Positions 1 through 8,450 of a DNA stretch of 8,450 nucleotides are shown here, piece after piece. The stretch comes from a virus. Its lineage: Duplodnaviria > Heunggongvirae > Uroviricota > Caudoviricetes. Position numbers and translations under genes: made by a program. The notes beneath the pieces were generated by a model. The model saw nothing but the letters and a program-made list of their open reading frames with translations. It made no database searches and was not told the origin of the DNA. The DNA is taken from IMG/VR virus record IMGVR_UViG_3300029467_000119, positions 1 through 8,450 of that record; one strand, written 5' to 3'. The number at the start of each line of letters is the position of its first letter. The stretch's first letter is position 1.

Positions 1-483
1 ATGACGAAGAAAAAAGCACATAAACTTGGTTCAGCGACCATCGCGCTTAACAAGCGCGCCCGTCACGAATACTTTATCGAAGAAGAGTTCGAAGCGGGAC
101 TTGCCCTGCAAGGCTGGGAGGTTAAATCCCTGCGCGCAGGAAAAGCCAATATCAGCGACAGCTACGTCCTTCTGCGTGACGGAGAGGCATTTCTGTTTGG
201 CGCTAACATCACGCCAATGGCCGTGGCCTCCACGCATGTGGTGTGCGATCCTACCCGTACCCGCAAGTTACTTCTCAACCAGCGCGAACTGGACTCATTG
301 TACGGTCGCGTCAATCGAGAAGGCTATACCGTAGTGGCGCTCTCCCTATACTGGAAAAATGCCTGGTGCAAAGTGAAAATCGGCGTCGCCAAAGGTAAGA
401 AACAGCACGATAAACGTTCAGACATCAAAGAACGCGAATGGCAGGTGGATAAAGCGCGTATCATGAAAAACGCCCACCGTTAA
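1..483 (+). CDS. smpB: SsrA-binding protein SmpB (trans-translation)
   Basis: 160-aa ORF from ATG at 1 to TAA at 481-483. The translation (MTKKKAHK...[36 protein letters not shown]...) is recognised as enterobacterial SmpB, and it sits immediately upstream of ssrA as in the conserved smpB-ssrA arrangement. Confidence 0.97.
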
Positions 484-674
484 ACCTGTAGTCCAATTAT
501 TGACCAGTTCCTCACCGCGCCTCCCTCTCCGGCGGCGCGAATGAACATCTTATTGGCTATCACATCCGACACAAATGTTGCCATCCCATTGCTTAATCGA
601 ATAAAAATCAGGCTACATGGGTGCTAAATCTTTAATGATAACGCCATTGAGGCTGGTCATGGCGCTCATAAATC

Positions 675-691
675 TGGTATACTTACCGTTA
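675..691 (+). promoter_or_regulatory. Candidate ssrA promoter: extended -10 element TGgTATACT (675..683), predicted precursor start about 7 nt before the mature 5' end
   Basis: TG at 675-676, one base, then TATACT at 678-683, positioned 15-20 nt upstream of the mature tmRNA 5' end at 698. No good -35 hexamer at 17-bp spacing, which is consistent with an extended -10 promoter. Read by eye only. Confidence 0.45.
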
Positions 692-697
692 CACATT

Positions 698-1060
698 GGG
701 GCTGATTCTGGATTCGACGGGATTTGCGAAACCCAAGGTGCATGCCGAGGGGCGGTTGGCCTCGTAAAAAGCCGCAAAAAATAGTCGCAAACGACGAAAA
801 CTACGCTTTAGCAGCTTAATAACCTGCTTAGAGCCCTCTCTCCCTAGCCTCCGCTCTTAGGACGGGGATCAAGAGAGGTCAAACCCAAAAGAGATCGCGT
901 GGAAGCCCTGCCTGGGGTTGAAGCGTTAAAACTTAATCAGGCTAGTTTGTTAGTGGCGTGTCCGTCCGCAGCTGGCAAGCGAATGTAAAGACTGACTAAG
1001 CATGTAGTACCGAGGATGTAGGAATTTCGGACGCGGGTTCAACTCCCGCCAGCTCCACCA
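698..1060 (+). ncRNA. ssrA: tmRNA (SsrA, 10Sa RNA), complete 363 nt
   Basis: Begins GGGGCTGATTCTGGATTCGACGGG at 698 and ends GGTTCAACTCCCGCCAGCTCCACCA at 1060 (tRNA-Ala-like acceptor/T-arm with CCA). Contains the internal tag reading frame and matches the length of E. coli tmRNA. Confidence 0.97.
787..819 (+). other. tmRNA tag-peptide reading frame (resume codon GCA at 787; encodes ANDENYALAA; TAA at 817-819 followed by a second TAA at 820-822)
   Basis: GCA AAC GAC GAA AAC TAC GCT TTA GCA GCT TAA TAA read directly from the sequence. This is the canonical enterobacterial degradation tag. Confidence 0.92.
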
Positions 1061-1070
1061 AATAAATCAA

Positions 1071-1099
1071 GGGGTTACGTGAAAGCGTAGCCCCTTTTT
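1071..1099 (+). terminator. Intrinsic terminator downstream of ssrA
   Basis: Stem GGGGTTACG (1071-1079) pairs with CGTAGCCCC (1085-1093) with one G.U pair, loop TGAAA, followed by TTTTT (1095-1099). Confidence 0.6.
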
Positions 1100-1118
1100 C
1101 TTAGGTAGTGGCGGCAAA

Positions 1119-1157
1119 ATGGCGACAGACTTTTGCGTCCATCTTGCCTGTCGCCAT
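1119..1157. repeat. Perfect 10-bp inverted repeat ATGGCGACAG (1119-1128) / CTGTCGCCAT (1148-1157) with 19-bp spacer; candidate operator or RNA hairpin upstream of the 1184 ORF
   Basis: Read directly. Lies 26 nt upstream of the ATG at 1184. A direct repeat CCATCTTG occurs at 1139-1146 and 1154-1161. Confidence 0.4.
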
Positions 1158-1183
1158 CTTGAAATCATGCAAAGAGGTTTGAC

Positions 1184-1666
1184 ATGGAAGAACTTCACTT
1201 TGTTTACATCAATGCAAATGGTCGTATCGGTGTTCACTCAATACAGAGCATCAGTTATAGCGAAAATCACATACAGGGCATTTGTAAGAACACCGATCGA
1301 ATAAAAACCTTCCGAAAAGACCGCATTCTTAAACAATACGATTCACAAGAACAAGCCATTCAGGAATGCGCGTCATTCCTCCCCGAAAACTACTCACATC
1401 TCACTAAGCAGTCAGGTCCGAAAAAAAATACATTCGATGTGTGTTTCACCGGATTTAAGCAAGCAGATAAAGAAAGGTTGGTTGATAAGGCGAATGAACA
1501 AGGATTAACGGTAAGAACATCTGTAACCCAAAACCTTCAGATGCTCTGTTGCGGTTACAATGCAGGCCCATCAAAAGTATCGGCAGCCAGGATGAAAGGC
1601 ACTATCATCATAGATGAGCCTGGCTTTATACATTTTCTTGAAACGGGTGAGATCCCAGATGAATAA
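1184..1666 (+). CDS. Hypothetical 160-aa protein with WYL-like N-terminal half and BRCT-like C-terminal half (prophage cargo)
   Basis: ATG at 1184 preceded by AAGAGG (1172-1177); TAA at 1664-1666. Residues about 5-48 (FVYINANGRIGVHSIQSISYSENHIQGICKNTDRIKTFRKDRI) fit the WYL-domain pattern ending in R-x-F-R-x-D-R-I. Residues about 84-155 (VCFTGF...ERL...GLTV..SV.....LCCG...GPSK...A...GTIIIDE..F..L) fit a BRCT fold pattern. About 38% GC by hand count of one 60-nt line. Confidence 0.7.
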   Translation: MEELHFVYINANGRIGVHSIQSISYSENHIQGICKNTDRIKTFRKDRILKQYDSQEQAIQECASFLPENYSHLTKQSGPKKNTFDVCFTGFKQADKERLVDKANEQGLTVRTSVTQNLQMLCCGYNAGPSKVSAARMKGTIIIDEPGFIHFLETGEIPDE

Positions 1667-1694
1667 AAACCTGCCGTAGCAGGTTCTCTTTCTT
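1665..1694. terminator. Bidirectional intrinsic terminator shared by the convergent 1184 ORF (+) and ogr (-)
   Basis: Stem ACCTGC (1669-1674), loop CGTA, stem GCAGGT (1679-1684). Flanked by AAAAA (1665-1669), which gives a U-tract for the minus-strand transcript, and by TCTCTTTCTT (1685-1694) for the plus-strand transcript. Confidence 0.6.
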
Positions 1695-1911
1695 AAAAAT
1701 TCATATGGCCCTGACCACCTGGCAATGGATGTGGAGGGGCTGTGGCAATCACTGCAGGTGTCACAATAAACCGGACCACTGTTTCATGGGTAACAAAAGT
1801 GCTCCCGCAGTTAATATTTTGGCACTGGCAGTAACGCTCTTTGGTGCTTTCTGTTACTTGAAAACTGCTCCTTGTGTGCGCCGCATGACCACACTTTGGA
1901 CAATTCATCAT
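1693..1911 (-). CDS. ogr: Ogr/B-family zinc-finger late-gene transcription activator (72 aa)
   Basis: From the second in-frame ATG (1909-1911) the product is 72 aa, MMNCPKCGHAAHTRSS...KERYCQCQNINCGSTF..., with C-x2-C-x22-C-x4-C spacing (Cys 4, 7, 30, 35) typical of P2 Ogr and 186 B. The ORF track's longer 87-aa form begins 45 nt upstream at 1956. Confidence 0.88.
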   Translation of the reverse strand: MMNCPKCGHAAHTRSSFQVTESTKERYCQCQNINCGSTFVTHETVVRFIVTPAVIATAPPHPLPGGQGHMNF

Positions 1912-1979
1912 ATCCAGATCCCTACCTTTGCTATCAGAATCATTGCAATGATACACAAAATATCAATATTGAGAACCAT

Positions 1980-3080
1980 TTATTCCATTTCAAGATCACC
2001 AATTTTCACTTCAAGTTCAATACTGGTCGTAAAACCGTTATCCGGGCTGACGGTATGTGTCAGAGTCGTAATGGTCCATTCCGCATCATCTATTGGCTGT
2101 TTAAAGCCACTGACCTTCACAGGCATTTCCGTGTAGAGATCTGCCCGACCTTCCGCCAGTTGTAGCGAGAATGACGCAACACCGCGTTGCAGGCGTTCCC
2201 ACTGCATTTTCGCCGCTCGTTCGGCGTTGCTCCGGTTGGCATAAGTGCGATTAAGTACCAGCACGTTTTCATCCGTCCCCACCAGATAATCGCCCTGCTT
2301 CGCTTCCGGCTCTTTCTTCTGCTTCTTAGTTCTGCGCTTACGCTTCACCGTGGTGCTTTCTTTCTTCGCGGGTTCGCGGGTATGCAACCAGCTGGCAATG
2401 ACGCCCGTATAGGCTCCGCGATCTGCCAGGGTAAAGCGGTGACTGTCGCCGTCCTTACGCGTGATAGTGATCACCGGCAGTGGTTTACCGCTGGCGCTTT
2501 TGCCCTGTCCCTGCCGGATGAATAACAGATTGCCATTTTTCACCGACGCAATAGCACCGTACTGGCGCGCCAGTCGCATCAGAAAACTGCCGTCACTCTC
2601 ATTGGTCTGGTCTATATGTTCCACGGGTTTATCTGACAGGTCTTTACCCAATGCCATCTTCAGTTTGTGCCGTGCAGCTATTTCCTTCACCACTTCCCCA
2701 ACGGTGGTCTTGTGCCACGACTTTTCACGGCGGGTATTCAGCGTTTCACGAAAATCAGCACTTCGCGCCCGGATAGTCAGGCGGTCCGGTGCGCCAGTGT
2801 GTTCAATCTCGTCCACCGTGAATGCCCCTTTCGGGAAAAGCAGCTGCCCCTTCCAGCCCAGCGCCAGCGTAATAACCGCACCACGGCGCGGCAGCACGAT
2901 TTTTCCGTCGGCGTCGTCCAGCTCCAGATCAAGCTGGTCTGCTTCAAAGCCCCGATTGTCCGTCAGCGTCAAACTCATCAGGCGGTTATCCAGCACAGTG
3001 GTGATATCCCTGCCCTCAATACTGATGCTGAATGCGGGAGTTTTGTTGCCTTTGTTAAGCAGTTCAGAGCTGAAATTCAC
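1980..3080 (-). CDS. D: P2 gpD-like phage tail protein (366 aa)
   Basis: Long ORF whose ATG overlaps the stop of the upstream U gene in an ATGA arrangement at 3077-3080. Recognised as the gpD family by its position in the conserved T-U-D-ogr order and by overall sequence character. Confidence 0.88.
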   Translation of the reverse strand: MNFSSELLNKGNKTPAFSISIEGRDITTVLDNRLMSLTLTDNRGFEADQLDLELDDADGKIVLPRRGAVITLALGWKGQLLFPKGAFTVDEIEHTGAPDRLTIRARSADFRETLNTRREKSWHKTTVGEVVKEIAARHKLKMALGKDLSDKPVEHIDQTNESDGSFLMRLARQYGAIASVKNGNLLFIRQGQGKSASGKPLPVITITRKDGDSHRFTLADRGAYTGVIASWLHTREPAKKESTTVKRKRRTKKQKKEPEAKQGDYLVGTDENVLVLNRTYANRSNAERAAKMQWERLQRGVASFSLQLAEGRADLYTEMPVKVSGFKQPIDDAEWTITTLTHTVSPDNGFTTSIELEVKIGDLEME

Positions 3081-3562
3081 GACAGCAGCCCTCCCACCGT
3101 TTTACTGATATCGCTTAAGGCAGACGTTGCCGTGTCCTGCAGATTATTCAGTTGCGCACTGAGATCACCGAACATATCGGACAGGGATTCATCCACCCGT
3201 TTGAGCGACAGGGTGAACTCAATCCGGCGCGGCATACCGTCGCGGAAAAACTCCGTTTTAGTCTGATTCAGTCCCTCAATCACATACATGCCGTAAATCG
3301 TGCCGCTGCCTTCAATCAGGGGCCATGCTTTCCCCTGTTCTGCCATCTGCTCCAGTACCAGCAACGACAGCCTGCCGCCTGTTATCTCCGGCATAAGAAC
3401 ACCAGAAAGCGTCAGCATGTCGTTGTCCGGTCCCAGAAACTGCGTGGACGGACGTCGGTTGACCCGGCTGTTTGCCGCATGTCGCCAGCTGCGTTGATAC
3501 TGCAGTTCCTGATACGGCACAGTGCGCAGCATAAACACGTACAATCCCAGCACCATCATCAT
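3077..3562 (-). CDS. U: P2 gpU-like phage tail protein (161 aa)
   Basis: ORF MMMVLGLYVFMLRTVPYQELQYQRSWRHAANSRVNRRPST... of the size expected for gpU. Its start overlaps the gpT stop (3559-3562) and its stop overlaps the gpD start, indicating translational coupling within the late tail operon. Confidence 0.88.
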   Translation of the reverse strand: MMMVLGLYVFMLRTVPYQELQYQRSWRHAANSRVNRRPSTQFLGPDNDMLTLSGVLMPEITGGRLSLLVLEQMAEQGKAWPLIEGSGTIYGMYVIEGLNQTKTEFFRDGMPRRIEFTLSLKRVDESLSDMFGDLSAQLNNLQDTATSALSDISKTVGGLLS

Positions 3563-4944
3563 GCGTCGTATCCCCCCTGATCGCTGTAGTTACTCCTGGC
3601 TTTTGCCTTCAGCCTGCGTTCACGTTCATCAAGCTGGCGTGCCACCTCCCGCGCAATATCCTGCGCACTTTGTCCTGGCTGCGTCTGGATGATGATCTGC
3701 GTCGGTGCCTCAATCCGTTGAGCGGGCGGCACAGTGGCTGCACGACTCACCATCGCTTCGCCGCCTTTCGCGGGAAGTGCCAAAGGATGTAACGGCGGAA
3801 GCTCTGCAGGCGCGGCAGCAACGCCCATCATTCCGGCAACAACGGCAGCCAGTGCAGCTGTATTTCTCCGACTGGTCACGTTTGCCGGACCGTTGACAAT
3901 TTCAGGCCCGTTTTCACCGACAATGCCGAACTGCCCGCGCGGGATATAGCCGCCGCTGTCATACATCCCCGCAAAGCCATATCCCCATGACGGAAAACCA
4001 CCCGATGGCATCATCACTTTACCGTCTGCATTCACCGTCGCAGGTTGCTGACGCGTCACGCTTTCCGGCAGTTTCGCCTTTGCAGCCTCTTTACTGACAA
4101 TACCGAGTTTCTCCAGCAACCAGGAAACGCCGGATTTCAGGGAGTCCAACGGATGCATGACCATATTCAGCCCTTCCGCCAGTGCCTCCCCGAATCGTCG
4201 CCCCATTGCCGCTGCGCTCTGCAGTTCGGCAGAGGTCGACTTAACAGGCGTCAGCAGATCAGTAAACCAGCCCCACAACGCCTGTACTTTGTCGCCAATC
4301 CACTGGAACACGGGCTTAAGCGGTTCGAATGCAGCACTGATGGGACCTGCCGCCGCTTTGAATCCTTCCACCACGCCACCGAGAAATGCGGTGATGGGTT
4401 GCCAGTATTTCCAGACAACCAGCGCCACGCCCGCCAGTGCAGTAACCACAAGACCTATCGGACTGAGCAGAGCACCTAACAGACCAGATACGGCATACAG
4501 GGCAACGCGCAGCATCGCCAGCGGACCGGATGCCAGCACACGCAGCACCGCGCCTGCGGCAGCCAGTCCACCGCGTAGTGCTGCCAGTGGATTCATAAAC
4601 ATCACAGCAACCGCACGTAAACCGGATAATCCAGACCGCAACAGTGCAACCGGCACACCTGCTACAGTTTTCAGGACATTCCCCGTCAGTGATGCGGTGC
4701 GGCGCAAAGACGACAACGGCGCAGTAAGTAAACCCGCTGCGTTGCCCGATGAAGCAAGCCCGCGTCGCAGCAGTGCCAGTGGAGCGCCAGCTAACCAGGA
4801 CAACGCGCTGCTGGTTCGTGTTACTGCTGCCGTAACGGAAGGTAACGTTTTGATACCCAGCACAGAGAATCCCAGACGGATGACTGCCAGCGGCCCCAGC
4901 ACTGCAGCCAGCGCCACCGCTAAGGTGCCGAGGCCTACGGTACC
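3559..4944 (-). pseudogene. T: Tail tape-measure protein gpT, 5'-truncated (C-terminal ~461 codons only)
   Basis: Ala/Gly/Leu-rich open frame typical of tape-measure proteins, ending ...ERERRLKAKARSNYSDQGGYDA. The frame is open from the stop at 3559-3561 up to position 4944 and is closed by an in-frame stop at 4945-4947. No ATG is present; the ORF track used GTG at 4915-4917. The length is roughly half that expected for P2-family gpT, recalled as about 800 aa. GC about 75% by hand count of one 60-nt line. Confidence 0.8.
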
Positions 4945-5201
4945 TCATTAATCGGTACACATGGCAGGCAGTGAATCTGTGCCAGAAAACCATCTATCAG
5001 CGTTGAATCTTCAGTCAGATCGGTAAGCAGCCAGATTTCTGGCGCATTGAGCTGATGCGGTTGATCTGGGTTGAGTTTGTTTCGCAGAGTCTGGACATTT
5101 ATTCCTGCACGTTCTGCCAGCTTCGCCATATTGTGACGTAGGGCAAAAGCTCTACAGGCTTCATCAAAATGCGGATGTTTGGAAATCTTATAATCAAACA
5201 T
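4935..5201 (-). CDS. cII: 186-type CII-family regulator, probable N-terminal fragment (88 aa, HTH retained), 3'-truncated at the deletion junction
   Basis: ATG at 5199-5201 preceded by AAGGGGG. The product MFDYKISKHPHFDEACRAFALRHNMAKLAERAGINVQTLRNKLNP... matches the N-terminal half of phage regulatory CII-family proteins, which I recall as about 170 aa. The ORF ends ...PINEVP* exactly where the gpT frame begins. Downstream of apl, as in phage 186. Confidence 0.65.
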   Translation of the reverse strand: MFDYKISKHPHFDEACRAFALRHNMAKLAERAGINVQTLRNKLNPDQPHQLNAPEIWLLTDLTEDSTLIDGFLAQIHCLPCVPINEVP

Positions 5202-5233
5202 GCGGCCCCCTTAGAAAGGTCTCATAATTGAAC

Positions 5234-5482
5234 TTAGTCACCAACGATGACATTAAAGTTGAAATTGGATTGGCCCATTTTTTTCCTGACTTGTTCCTTT
5301 TTGTACTCAAGGTAACGTATACATACTCTGTCTTTCGATTTTTCCTTTTTTTCCAAAAACTTAGCAAGTTTACCATTGTGAATCATTTGATATACCGAAC
5401 CACGAGATCGGCCTTCCCATTCCGCGAACTCTGCAGGGGTCGCCATCACTTTTGGTACACGAATTGAAATGTCGTTGCTCAT
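5234..5482 (-). CDS. Apl/Cox-like excisionase and transcriptional regulator (82 aa)
   Basis: Small ORF transcribed divergently from the CI gene, the position of apl in 186 and cox in P2. The segment TPAEFAEWEGRSRGSVYQMIHNGKLA resembles the Cox DNA-binding region. ATG at 5480-5482, TAA at 5234-5236. Confidence 0.7.
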   Translation of the reverse strand: MSNDISIRVPKVMATPAEFAEWEGRSRGSVYQMIHNGKLAKFLEKKEKSKDRVCIRYLEYKKEQVRKKMGQSNFNFNVIVGD

Positions 5483-5603
5483 AGTGCAGTATCTCTTACT
5501 TTGTGTGCGTTTTAGTTCGTTTTAGCTCGTCTCTTAAAATCTCACATCAAGAGACATGAAGACATTACGATCTTGATTCAAGATTGTCAAATGGAGATTA
5601 CCA
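5483..5603. promoter_or_regulatory. Divergent lysis/lysogeny switch region between apl and CI (presumed pR/pL and operators)
   Basis: 121-bp intergenic region containing a tandem 10-bp repeat TTTAGTTCGT/TTTAGCTCGT (5511-5530), direct GACAT repeats (5553-5557 and 5561-5565) and a 15-bp palindrome ATCTTGATTCAAGAT (5570-5584) about 20 bp upstream of the CI start codon. Exact promoter hexamers were not confidently assigned. Confidence 0.5.
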
Positions 5604-6236
5604 ATGTTAAACATCAGAATGGGTTCCGATACGGGAGGTAAGGCAGCTATTGAGAGGCTGCTTGAGGCTTATGGATTCACAACTAAGCAGGCATTAAGCG
5701 AGCATCTGAATGTCTCAAAAAGCACTATGGCAAACAGAGTGTTACGTGATAGCTTTCCTGCTGACTGGATAATTCAGTGCGCACTAGAAACTGGTGTTTC
5801 GTTGCTTTGGTTAGCAACAGGACAGGGAAGCATGAAAGAAGAATGTGAGCCTGAAAAAAGTTCTCATAATGAGAACAAACTAGCGATTAGACCGTTATCC
5901 AAACTCGTAACTCCATCTATTCCTAAAGGAACCTTGGAGAATGGAAAACTCCGTATTGATGAAAAGATTTTTCTAGACCACAGCATATTACCTGCACATT
6001 ATGAAGAATCGATGTTCTTAGAAACCCCTACTGATTGTTATCTCATCGATAAATCAGTTAAACAAGTCAGCAATGGATTCTGGCTTATCAATATTGATGG
6101 AATGATTATTATTGCAAAAATCATGCGGATTCCCGGCAATAAGATTGTAGTAAATCAAGATGAAGCGTCTTTCGAGTGCTCTGCTGATGATGTGGAAGTT
6201 ATTGGGCGCGCAGTCAAAGTAATAAAGAGTATCTAA
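5604..6236 (+). CDS. cI: Phage 186-type CI immunity repressor (210 aa)
   Basis: ATG at 5604 with GGAGA 5 nt upstream. The N-terminal motif TKQALSEHLNVSKSTMANRVLRDSFPADWIIQCALETGVSLLWLATGQG is characteristic of the phage CI-repressor HTH domain family. The stop at 6234-6236 is followed 2 nt later by the int start, giving a CI-int operon as in 186. Confidence 0.85.
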   Translation: MLNIRMGSDTGGKAAIERLLEAYGFTTKQALSEHLNVSKSTMANRVLRDSFPADWIIQCALETGVSLLWLATGQGSMKEECEPEKSSHNENKLAIRPLSKLVTPSIPKGTLENGKLRIDEKIFLDHSILPAHYEESMFLETPTDCYLIDKSVKQVSNGFWLINIDGMIIIAKIMRIPGNKIVVNQDEASFECSADDVEVIGRAVKVIKSI

Positions 6237-6238
6237 AC

Positions 6239-7255
6239 ATGACTGTCAGAAAACAGCCAAACGGTAAATGGTTGTGTGAGTGCTATCCCAATGGACGCAA
6301 TGGCAAACGCGTACGTAAGCAATTTGCTACGAAAGGCGAAGCCATTGCGTTTGAAAGCTTCACTATGGAAGAGGTGAACAAAAAACCGTGGTTAGGTGAA
6401 AAGGATGATCGGCGGCACCTGTCAGAATTAATTGAGCTGTGGTATTCCCTGTATGGTCGAACTCTCGCTGACCCCAAGCGTTTAATGGCGAAATTAAAAA
6501 TCATTTGTGGTGGACTTGGTGATCCCATAGCCTCTGAATTGACAGCAGGTGATTTCACTAAGTATCGGGAAGCGCGACTAAAAGGTGACGTTAAAAACAT
6601 TGATGGTGTGTTTATGTCGCCGGTTAAGCCTCGAACAGTAAACCTTGAACAACGCAATCTATCATCAGTTTTTGGAACTTTAAAAAAATTAGGCCACTGG
6701 TCCGCCCCCAACCCACTCGCCGGTCTACCAACATTTAAAATTGCAGAGGGCGAACTGGCATTTCTGACACAGGAAGAAATAAAACGCTTGCTGAATGCCT
6801 GTGCTGATTCTCAAAATCCCAGCCTACTTTTGATTGCAAAAATATGCTTAGCCACAGGCGCGCGCTGGAGTGAAGCCGAAAACCTGCAGGGTCATCAGTT
6901 ATCAAAATACCGTATAACTTATACCAAGACAAAGGGCAAGAAAAACCGAACCGTACCTATTTCTCAGGAACTGTACAACGAACTCCCCAAAAAACGAGGG
7001 AAGTTATTCACACCATGCAGAAAAGCCTTTGAACGGGCGGTAAAACGGGCCGGTATCGAACTACCGGAAGGCCAATGCACCCACGTCCTGCGCCATACAT
7101 TTGCCAGCCACTTTATGATGAATGGCGGAAACATACTGGTGCTGCGCGATATTCTAGGACATGCGGATATAAAAATGACGATGATCTACGCTCATTTTTC
7201 TCCAGATCATTTAGAAGACGCGGTGACTAAAAATCCACTAAATTTATTAAAGTGA
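6239..7255 (+). CDS. int: P2-type tyrosine integrase (338 aa)
   Basis: N-terminus ...NGKRVRKQFATKGEAIAFE... and a C-terminal catalytic region with GARWSE (Arg), HVLRHTF (His-x-x-Arg) and MIYAHF (Tyr), typical of P2/186 integrases. Confidence 0.95.
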   Translation: MTVRKQPNGKWLCECYPNGRNGKRVRKQFATKGEAIAFESFTMEEVNKKPWLGEKDDRRHLSELIELWYSLYGRTLADPKRLMAKLKIICGGLGDPIASELTAGDFTKYREARLKGDVKNIDGVFMSPVKPRTVNLEQRNLSSVFGTLKKLGHWSAPNPLAGLPTFKIAEGELAFLTQEEIKRLLNACADSQNPSLLLIAKICLATGARWSEAENLQGHQLSKYRITYTKTKGKKNRTVPISQELYNELPKKRGKLFTPCRKAFERAVKRAGIELPEGQCTHVLRHTFASHFMMNGGNILVLRDILGHADIKMTMIYAHFSPDHLEDAVTKNPLNLLK

Positions 7256-7262
7256 GAAAAGA

Positions 7263-8450
7263 ATGCAACAGGATAGAGATGTTGAAACTCAGTTAAATAT
7301 GATGCTGAATGAGTTGTATAGTAATGAGGATTTAATGCCACCTTTTAAACCTAAAGGTGACATCGTTTCTGATTTTAACTCTCGCTGCAATGAATACCTT
7401 AATTTTTTAAATGAATTTAAAATTAAAAACAAAACCAGGCTTAATATTGATCTGCTAATAAAGCGAGTATTAAAAATACAACTAGGAATAACCGAGAGCC
7501 TTCAAGAGTTTTTAGCGGGTGACATCAAAGAGGCATATGATATTTTCGATGACACTTTTTCAGACAATCTTATTAATAAGCATATTCAAAGAATCACAAT
7601 CCCCCTTAAGGAAATATGTAATTATGATCAACCACTCTATAGAGTACGCAAATCAGACAAGCCATTACTTAACAGGGAAGATATTTTCCATATACCATTT
7701 TCCTGCCGACACCTTGTCAGTGCTCAACGTTACTCAGTAGCGGGACTCCCCTGTTTATATCTAGGTTCATCTCTATATGTATGCTGGCAAGAAATGGACA
7801 AACCAGATTTTGATAAACTATATATATCCTCATTCATATCACAAGATACTAAATCTAAAATCCTTAACTTTGTTCCACAACTGAAAACCTCAATCAATAC
7901 TAAAGAATGGAGCAGCGAAGAGTTAAGAACAAATAATTATATCAAAGCTTCGTATTTGGTTCTCTGGCCCTTAATTTTCTCATGTAGCTATATAAAAACA
8001 CATGAAAACTCAAGTTTTACGCAAGAATATATAATACCTAATTTACTCATGCAGTGGATAAGCACACGGGGTCAATCTCCAATATCTGGCATAGCCTATT
8101 CATCAACGAAAATGAAAAAAAGTCTAGGTTCAAAACTTTCAATAAATGTTGTATTACCCCCCAAAGCCACATATAGACAAACGACTCAAAAAGATTTTTG
8201 CCCAAGGTTGTCATCATTATTTGATTTTACTCCACCTGTTTCATGGCAGGTTTTAAAAACATTAGAGTATCAGAATGCAATCCCTAAAACATCTGAGCAG
8301 GGGAAAGCTATCAGATTTCTTGCTCGAAAAGAAAGGCTATCTGGCATTACTGATTTTGATAGTGACATAATCAGACTTTACCCATTAACTGACTTTTATA
8401 AACTGGAAGTTTGTATGGATCGCTTATTTGATTATTCACCTATTAGATAG
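7263..8450 (+). CDS. Hypothetical 395-aa protein with a central RES-like (NAD+-targeting toxin-type) domain; AT-rich prophage cargo
   Basis: ATG at 7263, 7 nt after the int stop, with a purine-rich GAGAAAAG upstream; TAG at 8448-8450. About 33% GC by hand count of two 60-nt lines. Residues 155-177 (QRYSVAGLPCLYLGSSLYVCWQE) and 274-299 (ISGIAYSSTKMKKSLGSKLSINVVLP) resemble the conserved Arg, Glu and Ser motifs of RES domains: Arg156 codon 7728-7730, Glu177 codon 7791-7793, Ser280 codon 8100-8102. The flanking N-terminal (~115 aa) and C-terminal (~95 aa) regions are unassigned. Confidence 0.8.
   Translation: MQQDRDVETQLNMMLNELYSNEDLMPPFKPKGDIVSDFNSRCNEYLNFLNEFKIKNKTRLNIDLLIKRVLKIQLGITESLQEFLAGDIKEAYDIFDDTFSDNLINKHIQRITIPLKEICNYDQPLYRVRKSDKPLLNREDIFHIPFSCRHLVSAQRYSVAGLPCLYLGSSLYVCWQEMDKPDFDKLYISSFISQDTKSKILNFVPQLKTSINTKEWSSEELRTNNYIKASYLVLWPLIFSCSYIKTHENSSFTQEYIIPNLLMQWISTRGQSPISGIAYSSTKMKKSLGSKLSINVVLPPKATYRQTTQKDFCPRLSSLFDFTPPVSWQVLKTLEYQNAIPKTSEQGKAIRFLARKERLSGITDFDSDIIRLYPLTDFYKLEVCMDRLFDYSPIR

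Follow-up and report, generated by a model that had tools for sequence, protein, structure and literature searches.

A gene at the ssrA end of a P2-like prophage

The stretch of DNA analysed here (the window; 8,450 nucleotides, positions 1 to 8,450 of the IMG/VR record IMGVR_UViG_3300029467_000119) opens with smpB (1-483) and ssrA, and then continues into the DNA of a P2-like prophage. The gene under study is an open reading frame (ORF) on the plus strand at 1184-1666, between ssrA and the late-gene activator gene ogr. It encodes a protein of 160 amino acids (18.1 kDa), built from a WYL domain and a BRCT domain, which is a member of the family phrog_2561. The original prediction, made from the letters of the window, had placed the ORF exactly here and had proposed its two domains, along with an unusual architecture and a possible partnership with a RES-like protein encoded at the other end of the element.

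The ORF is a real, conserved gene under purifying selection. A first search returned 107 homologs at E ≤ 1e-3, and the ratio of nonsynonymous to synonymous substitution rates (dN/dS) against close alleles lies between 0.09 and 0.22, so that the check on its conservation came out in favour of the prediction. The family profile, searched against 1.84 billion representatives, matched 2789 of them at E ≤ 1e-3, 893 at E ≤ 1e-10 and 202 at E ≤ 1e-30. The gene is found in 179 of 5426 complete Escherichia coli genomes (about 3%) and in 28 of 50,697 phage records, and its product is 99% identical to the copy in Cartapus, an Escherichia phage of the genus Elveevirus (Peduoviridae). Relatives from IMG/VR were nearly all close ones that end at the prophage end, and they added little context.

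The expression signals attributed to the gene were found in part. A good Shine-Dalgarno sequence had been claimed, and AAAGAGG is indeed present at 1171-1177 (plus strand), 6 nucleotides ahead of the ATG. A terminator-like hairpin, to which no strand was assigned, follows the ORF at 1668-1685, with a 7-bp stem including four G-C pairs and a T-rich tail. The ORF had been credited with this terminator as its own; the hairpin exists, but since it is located in the 26-nucleotide gap between two convergent genes, it may serve both the ORF and ogr. A promoter scan revealed nothing of the sigma-70 type ahead of the ORF, and no promoter is conserved among seven aligned upstream regions. In that alignment, inspected for a promoter, the conserved block is a TGGCGRCA repeat.

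The left border of the prophage is sharply defined. The integration target, ssrA (698-1060, plus strand), was identified by ARAGORN as a transfer-messenger RNA gene with the tag ANDENYALAA, and its 3′ end, from about position 1016, is supplied by the phage. This phage-borne copy of the ssrA 3′ end (1016-1060, plus strand) forms the attL core, with prophage DNA beginning to its right. By alignment, identity to the attP region of Cartapus starts at window positions 1013-1016, and positions 1016-4942 are 99.8% identical to positions 4833-8759 of the Cartapus genome (L001). The intrinsic terminator of ssrA (1069-1096, plus strand; a 12-bp stem with six G-C pairs and a T-run) is likewise phage-supplied, lies 88 nucleotides upstream of the ORF and is kept in seven diverged phages and prophages in the upstream alignment. 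Because the phage brings its own ssrA 3′ end and terminator, and the ORF lies 88 nucleotides beyond, the gene belongs to the phage DNA.

Past the terminator lies a direct repeat with an 11-nucleotide period, TGGCGGCA-AAA-TGGCGACA (1109-1127, plus strand). It corresponds to the block GTGGCGGCAAA(A/T)TGGCG(G/A)CAG, in which all but two positions are identical in the seven phages and prophages and whose flanks have diverged. Judging from its conservation, the repeat probably provides arm-type sites for the integrase in the P′ arm of attP. An 8-bp inverted repeat, GGCGACAG...CTGTCGCC (1121-1155), overlaps it and was seen in the window only.

At position 4942 the match to Cartapus jumps into the CII gene, after which identity falls to 86% through a cox-like gene, CI and int. 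The tape-measure gene T is shortened there to 452 amino acids (1025 in Cartapus) and abuts a truncated CII of 88 amino acids instead of 169 (region 3559-5201). With both ends kept and the match jumping in this way, the element is an internally deleted, mosaic P2-like prophage in ssrA. Its left end carries the WYL-BRCT gene, ogr, D, U and the truncated T, and its right end the truncated CII, the cox-like gene, a 186-type CI, int and a cargo gene of 395 codons. The CI repressor, which matches Pfam Phage_CI_repr and Phage_CI_C, and the integrase occupy 5604-7255 on the plus strand. The convergent neighbour of the ORF, ogr (1693-1911, minus strand), is annotated as such in Cartapus and in E. coli CUPF12. 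Other E. coli genomes hold independently deleted remnants of similar prophages in which the WYL-BRCT gene is intact. Long ORFs on both strands of 3559-4993, for example 4157-4951 (plus) and 4316-4993 (minus), overlap the G+C-rich tape-measure gene; we regard these as artefacts of composition, not as genes.

A WYL barrel joined to a BRCT domain

An AlphaFold (AF2) model of the 160-residue protein was obtained with a mean predicted local distance difference test score (pLDDT) of 91.5 and a predicted template modelling score (pTM) of 0.51. The latter value indicates that the relative orientation of the two domains is not fixed in the model. The N-terminal domain (residues 3-52; 1190-1339, plus strand) adopts the five-stranded Sm/SH3-like β-barrel of WYL domains, and its best structural matches are solved WYL domains, those of PafBC, CapW, BrxR and DriD. 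It is followed by two short helices (residues 55-73) and a flexible linker (residues 74-84) with the lowest pLDDT of the model (1346-1435 for both, plus strand), then by the BRCT domain (residues 85-154; 1436-1645, plus strand) and by an acidic C-terminal tail (residues 155-160; 1646-1663, plus strand).

Sequence profiles gave a mixed picture of the first half, which the original prediction had compared to a WYL-type sensor. The window protein itself does not match Pfam WYL (PF13280) at E ≤ 10, and it reaches an E value of 0.027 with the WYL model of PADLOC. Pfam WYL is matched by 8 of 40 homologs, with a best E value of 1.5e-5, and one relative (P0131) reaches 28.5 bits, above the gathering score of 21.8. 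When a profile of the N-terminal domain was searched against the whole PDB, it matched PafBC and PafC only, in the expected register.

The residues that give the WYL domain its name are not kept. As the original prediction had noted, the W-Y-L site is occupied by H29-I30-Q31, and the family consensus is [HY]-[IVL]-Q-G; the triad also varies in accepted WYL domains, such as PafC, which reads S-Y-L. The motif R-x-F-R-x-D-R-I had been read at the end of the barrel, and this was essentially right, except that the window protein has K-T-F-R-K-D-R-I. The two arginines of this motif, R44 and R47, align by profile with R201 and R204 of PafC from M. smegmatis, and both are kept in 34 of 40 aligned homologs, the exceptions being six marine sequences. 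Mutation of R201/R204 abolishes ssDNA (single-stranded DNA) binding and activation (PMC11804915). CapW, DriD and PafBC bind ssDNA through their WYL domain, CapW in the same way as DriD (PMC11662680).

In these transcription factors the WYL domain is placed between a winged helix-turn-helix (HTH) domain and a WCX domain. The window protein shares with them the F-R-x-D-R-I motif, including the two arginines needed for ssDNA binding in PafC, and, like them, is tied to phage-defence or prophage loci. It differs by lacking both flanking domains, by having H-I-Q in place of W-Y-L, and by the absence of the RWHVR arginines of CapW and BrxR. No HTH family was detected with Pfam at E ≤ 10, and the barrel starts at residue 3, in line with the earlier claim that the protein has no HTH. 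Where a WCX domain would be expected, the AF2 model has the helices, the linker and the BRCT domain. A catalytic domain is lacking as well. Without an HTH, the protein cannot work as a sequence-specific repressor or activator in the manner of CapW, BrxR, DriD or PafBC.

The C-terminal half had been predicted to be a BRCT module, and several methods concur. The window protein scores 21.3 bits with Pfam BRCT (PF00533), exactly the gathering score of 21.3, and 37 of 40 homologs match the same family. With the family profile as query, the PDB yielded BRCT domains from LigA of Thermus and from RFC1 of human and of yeast, at E values of about 3e-5 to 1e-4. With Foldseek, the top matches are all BRCT domains at a probability of 1.00, those of LigA and RFC1 coming first. 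In the AF2 model, residues 85-154 follow the BRCT topology β1-α1-β2-β3-α2-β4-α3.

Three residues of this domain, T89, G90 and K131, are invariant in 40 homologs, in keeping with the phosphate-binding subclass at the residue level. In alignments, K131 corresponds to the lysine of the "SGQSK" segment of human RFC1 and adjoins K208 of yeast Rfc1. The corresponding residues of human RFC1 are T415, G416 and K458. We consider it plausible, from conservation, that T89, G90 and K131 form a putative phosphate pocket. Phosphate-binding BRCT domains are defined by an S/T-G pair in the β1-α1 loop and a lysine at the N-terminus of α2 (PMC10386641). K208 of yeast Rfc1 lines the cavity for the recessed 5′ end and its 5′-phosphate (PMC9293004), and the isolated RFC1 BRCT domain binds recessed 5′-phosphate DNA with a Kd of about 10 nM, according to work cited in the same paper.

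The LigA and RFC1 domains are thus the closest to the window BRCT by sequence profile and by structure, with the T-G and G-x-x-K motifs lining up. Domains of this class bind DNA, and that of RFC1 binds recessed 5′-phosphate ends. Unlike them, the window BRCT is not attached to an enzyme or an ATPase, and it ends in a family-specific acidic tail. This tail reads G-E-I-P-D-E in the window and ETGEIP[DE]x in the family consensus, where T154 and G155 are nearly invariant. Some members of the family end in -IPDF, and the tail loosely recalls acidic docking peptides such as that of SSB.

Given the conservation of R44/R47 on one side and of T89, G90 and K131 on the other, it is plausible that both halves keep nucleic-acid-binding sites. 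The suggestion made at the outset, that the protein senses DNA ends or nucleic acid or serves as an adaptor for them, is plausible as well.

Family members, their labels and their genomic neighbourhoods

The WYL-BRCT proteins form a catalogued but functionally unstudied family. The phrog_2561 profile matches the ORF over its full length (E 4.4e-77) and is labelled "DNA ligase" in PHROGs, a label that RefSeq phage records also carry; E. coli copies are named "BRCT domain-containing protein" by PGAP/RefSeq, and the Cartapus record calls its copy a "putative exonuclease". A WYL+BRCT combination was already listed among known WYL fusions by Makarova et al. 2014 (PMC4012209). With its own PHROG, at least 202 representatives at E ≤ 1e-30 and a standing PGAP name, the architecture is not rare, contrary to the earlier view of it as unusual. 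The PHROG and RefSeq entries describe the family to which the ORF belongs, but neither records the WYL half or a function, and "DNA ligase" is a misnomer carried over from the BRCT domain. The new points are the combination of a WYL sensor that has no HTH with a BRCT of the DNA-end type, and its systematic place in the lysogeny unit.

The enzymatic labels were rejected on inspection of the matches, which cover only the C-terminal BRCT segments of the NCBIfam models. LigA models scored 12-21 bits against cut-offs of 369-1051, with matches confined for example to profile positions 547-650 of 652. The DEDDh exonuclease model NF004719 scored 26 bits against a cut-off of 389, over profile positions 229-307 of 331 only. 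The 160-residue protein has none of the adenylation domain, OB fold, Zn finger and HhH motifs of LigA, nor a DEDD exonuclease domain; being made up of a WYL barrel and a BRCT, it has no room for an adenylation or a DEDD domain.

Membership in PDC-S48, a candidate single-gene defence system of PADLOC, was also rejected. The C-terminus of PDC-S48 carries the same BRCT subtype (E 1.6e-7, positions 334-406 of 411), but the match is limited to the last 70 or so residues. Since the remainder of PDC-S48 bears no relation to the window protein, the ORF does not belong to this system; the same applies to ten longer relatives, which also have only the C-terminal BRCT in common with it.

Stand-alone proteins of at most 200 amino acids account for 85 of the 150 best representatives. 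A set of 60 longer ones yielded 62 extra N- or C-terminal segments, and 42 of these segments contain hydrophobic, membrane-type stretches as predicted by a simple hydropathy window in place of a dedicated transmembrane predictor. Roughly a quarter of the top relatives are thus predicted to be membrane-anchored WYL-BRCT modules. In P0180, P0189, P0197, P0200, P0205, P0215, P0234 and others, one to five predicted transmembrane stretches and a low-complexity linker stand before the module, rarely behind it. Other longer relatives carry a second module, or an additional BRCT or WYL domain.

Many relatives are fused, at either terminus, to an uncharacterised domain of about 200 residues with invariant W-T-Q-G and F-x-x-G-D motifs, which corresponds to phrog_36782. 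It is carried by P0150, P0167, P0185, P0118 and P0166, and is encoded by a separate, adjacent downstream gene in loci L097 and L116. A profile built from six sequences of this domain had no match in the PDB, and no Pfam family was found in the stand-alone copies of L097 and L116. Neither the window nor the P2-like loci contain this domain.

The genomic context was surveyed in 43 species-level genome loci, and the gene is an accessory one of P2-like temperate phages that travels with the lysogeny module, on the strand that carries the immunity repressor and integrase genes, at the end of the module and convergent with the tail genes. Three arrangements recur in P2-like elements. In the first, attL is followed by the ORF, then by convergent ogr (or D alone), D and U. 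In the second, the order is CI, ORF, cargo and int. In the third, CI is followed by the ORF, sometimes by further genes, and by convergent D and U. The original description of the gene as prophage cargo transcribed convergently to the late genes is therefore confirmed. About half of the 43 loci have no P2-type marker genes nearby.

The circular maps of Cartapus and of Yersinia phage MLG42 show, in this order, CI, int, cargo if any, attP, the ORF, and then convergent ogr or D. As attP lies between the lysogeny operon and the ORF in the Escherichia ssrA lineage, the ORF of the integrated prophage lands just past the phage-supplied ssrA terminator. Elsewhere, the gene lies on the strand of the repressor gene and directly or closely after it, as in Mannheimia, Vibrio and Burkholderia phages and in prophages of at least 10 genera. 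The homolog comes directly after the repressor in Mannheimia PHL101 and Vibrio PV94, with one gene in between in the Burkholderia phage. In eight loci with a repressor directly upstream, the gap ranges from -22 to +20 nucleotides. Immunity repressors make up about half of the 25 upstream neighbours that share the strand of the gene; seven match Phage_CI_repr (186-type) and five match Peptidase_S24. The presence of two kinds of repressor argues against a partnership with one of them and for the use of the lysogenic transcription unit.

Downstream of the ORF, the cargo is variable and includes genes of defence type: KAP NTPase (PDC-S20) in Brenneria (L107) and Hafnia (L108), DUF7380 with DUF4209 (PDC-S39) in Aeromonas (L111), and AbiTii in Pseudomaricurvus (L102), each directly downstream. 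In L107, L108 and L111 these genes fill the interval between CI/WYL-BRCT and int, and the L102 locus is one without P2-type markers. An anti-phage hotspot between cI and int has been described in K139-like and PhiO18P-like relatives of P2 by Rousset et al. 2022 (PMC9122126). In Vibrio, Aeromonas, Hafnia, Brenneria, Rahnella and Acerihabitans, the gene either sits in the interval from cI to int or follows cI, with an int-like ORF farther on, and the likeness extends to the defence-type cargo that follows it in the Brenneria, Hafnia and Aeromonas loci. The position of the WYL-BRCT gene is hence at or next to this published hotspot. It differs from the hotspot cassettes in being the conserved first gene of the interval instead of a variable cassette, and in lying beyond attP in the E. 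coli lineage.

The 395-residue cargo protein, encoded after int at the opposite end of the prophage (7263-8450), had been called RES-like and considered as a partner of the WYL-BRCT protein. Pfam gave no RES match, its only match being a spurious one to Plasmod_dom_1, and PADLOC gave no match. The protein is 46% identical to gp33 of Cartapus and has homologs in the Salmonella phages SopEPhi, RE2010 and SE479, as well as in Bacillus SPbeta (yopC, a "RES domain-containing" protein in RefSeq). The proposed partnership did not survive the co-occurrence check. SopEPhi, RE2010, SE479 and SPbeta have the RES-like gene and not the ORF, MLG42 has the ORF and not the RES-like gene, and a RES-like homolog lies near the ORF in none of the 43 loci. 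Among the phage records holding either gene, only the two Cartapus records hold both. Since the identities to the Cartapus copies are 99% for the ORF product and 46% for the cargo protein, the two genes have different histories. A two-gene system with the RES-like protein was rejected on co-occurrence.

A candidate DNA-end binder of the lysogenic state

The reading that we favour, though tentatively and with less than even confidence, is that the WYL-BRCT protein is a non-enzymatic, two-domain binder of ssDNA and 5′-phosphate ends that is made in lysogens and acts on foreign DNA. Production in lysogens is suggested by the position of the gene. The WYL domain would hold ssDNA through the R44/R47 pair, and the BRCT pocket (T89-G90 and K131) would hold a 5′-phosphate at a DNA end, a nick or a junction between single- and double-stranded DNA. 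The targets would be foreign DNA entering the lysogen or replicating in it, such as its cohesive ends or its gapped or nicked intermediates. The purpose would be exclusion or defence; the gene would be cargo at the head of the cI-int hotspot, and its product may act by steric capping. Action on foreign DNA is favoured because the gene lies at or next to a defence hotspot and because many relatives are predicted to be membrane-anchored; such anchoring would place the module where foreign DNA enters. The intact state of the gene in the independently deleted remnants was also counted for this reading. In a more specific form, which we consider possible but rather doubtful, the protein would be a self-sufficient exclusion factor devoid of an effector, tethered to the inner membrane in many lineages, that recognises ssDNA together with a 5′-phosphate as a mark of foreign DNA on its way in or in replication, at cohesive ends, gapped junctions or transferred strands, and caps these, so as to block ligation, circularisation or replication.

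Several observations weigh against the favoured reading. The window sequence, taken singly, falls below the Pfam WYL threshold. Neither the W-Y-L triad nor the RWHVR arginines of CapW and BrxR are conserved, and the WCX domain, which helps to form the ssDNA crevice in solved WYL regulators, is absent here. For these reasons the ligand of the WYL domain could be other than ssDNA, such as RNA or a nucleotide, for which c-di-GMP is an example (PMC11880434). Lacking an effector domain, the protein has to work sterically, by binding, or with the help of a partner. Many of the genes downstream are of other kinds than defence, those for lipoproteins and membrane proteins among them. PADLOC has no model for the family and offers only domain-level matches to PDC-S48 and to its generic WYL model, and our literature search found no functional study of any WYL-BRCT protein nor any mention of WP_000391794. 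Finally, expression in lysogens is deduced from gene position, and in its E. coli prophage form the gene has a strong terminator immediately ahead of it. Because no promoter of its own was detectable or conserved, the gene may be expressed there by read-through of the ssrA terminator.

The main rival is that the protein serves the prophage as a DNA-damage sensor or adaptor, an explanation that we judge unlikely. The WYL domain would sense ssDNA arising from damage, as in DriD, PafBC and CapW, and the BRCT domain would dock on broken DNA or on a partner, for which the repressor, SSB, the clamp, ligase or a repair factor are candidates. In this way induction, excision or repair in the host would be tuned. 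In the literature that we found, every characterised WYL regulator whose ligand is known senses ssDNA as a signal of damage or infection, and eukaryotic BRCT domains are classic adaptors of the damage response. The gene is moreover co-oriented with the immunity repressor and often directly follows it, a fitting place for a sensor that is constitutively present. Yet its linkage to repressors of two kinds, 186-type with CI_C and S24 peptidase, makes a specific repressor partnership unlikely. A repressor of the S24 type would already be SOS-inducible; the 186-type CI_C, to our knowledge, is not cleaved under the action of RecA. As an accessory gene, present in 28 of the 50,697 phage records, it stands outside the core switch, and relatives anchored in the membrane would be ill-suited to regulating a switch on the nucleoid.

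Alternatively, and with low probability in our estimate, the protein could be a sensor or regulatory subunit for the variable adjacent cargo, the RES-like protein included, detecting infection and switching on an effector. WYL proteins commonly regulate adjacent defence systems, and the WYL-BRCT gene is the conserved first one ahead of variable cargo that includes defence-type genes. The module is also fused in other relatives to the domain of about 200 residues that forms a separate downstream gene in L097 and L116. Against this stands the lack of any single co-occurring partner, the RES-like gene and the ORF each occurring alone, and the RES-like gene is located at the opposite end of the prophage. 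There is no adjacent cargo in MLG42, in Burkholderia phage vB_FUB5a (L003) or in a Marinobacter prophage locus (L114). Having no HTH, the protein cannot exert transcriptional control of the CapW/BrxR type.

We give little credence to a role in the ligase pathway, in which a stand-alone BRCT subunit would aid the host LigA at nicks or compete with it, like the BRCT-bearing "ligase subunit B" that T5-like phages encode separately. LigA does provide the best BRCT matches, and this subunit B is among the weaker ones (PDB 9hu3_B, E 0.017; Eps7 subunit B). However, the stretches with annotation in the P2-like phages that were examined showed no catalytic subunit of a ligase, HhH, Zn-finger and OB domains are all missing from the protein, and the scores with LigA models are far below their cut-offs, as given above. 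The protein also has a distinct family profile that includes a WYL domain, which no ligase has.

An accessory function in site-specific recombination at attP, attL or attR is very improbable. It is suggested by the distance of about 55 nucleotides between the gene and the Int-arm-like repeats in the Escherichia, Yersinia and Klebsiella lineage, and by prophages, such as that of L109, in which the gene overlaps or adjoins int. In most other P2-like phages, though, the gene is next to CI or D and not to attP, about half of the 43 loci are without P2-type markers, and membrane-anchored versions exist. As for an enzyme, the labels in PHROGs, RefSeq phage records and the Cartapus record are the sole support, and with scores of 12-26 bits against cut-offs of 369-1051, confined to BRCT segments, and no space for a catalytic domain, we discard it almost entirely.

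WYL domains are now seen as ssDNA sensors by which transcription factors are turned on or off in responses to DNA damage and against phages. Here, the same type of sensor is joined to a BRCT of the DNA-end-binding type and not to a DNA-reading head, which suggests that WYL sensing may also work directly, without transcription. The family is widespread, with hundreds of clusters at 50% identity, a presence in about 3% of complete E. coli genomes and members in P2-like prophages of many genera. It goes under the wrong labels of ligase and exonuclease. Defining its function would correct thousands of annotations, and could point to a simple means, without enzymatic activity, by which prophages deal with foreign or damaged DNA. 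If the exclusion-factor reading is true, the family would represent a mode of defence that operates without nuclease, NADase or cell suicide.

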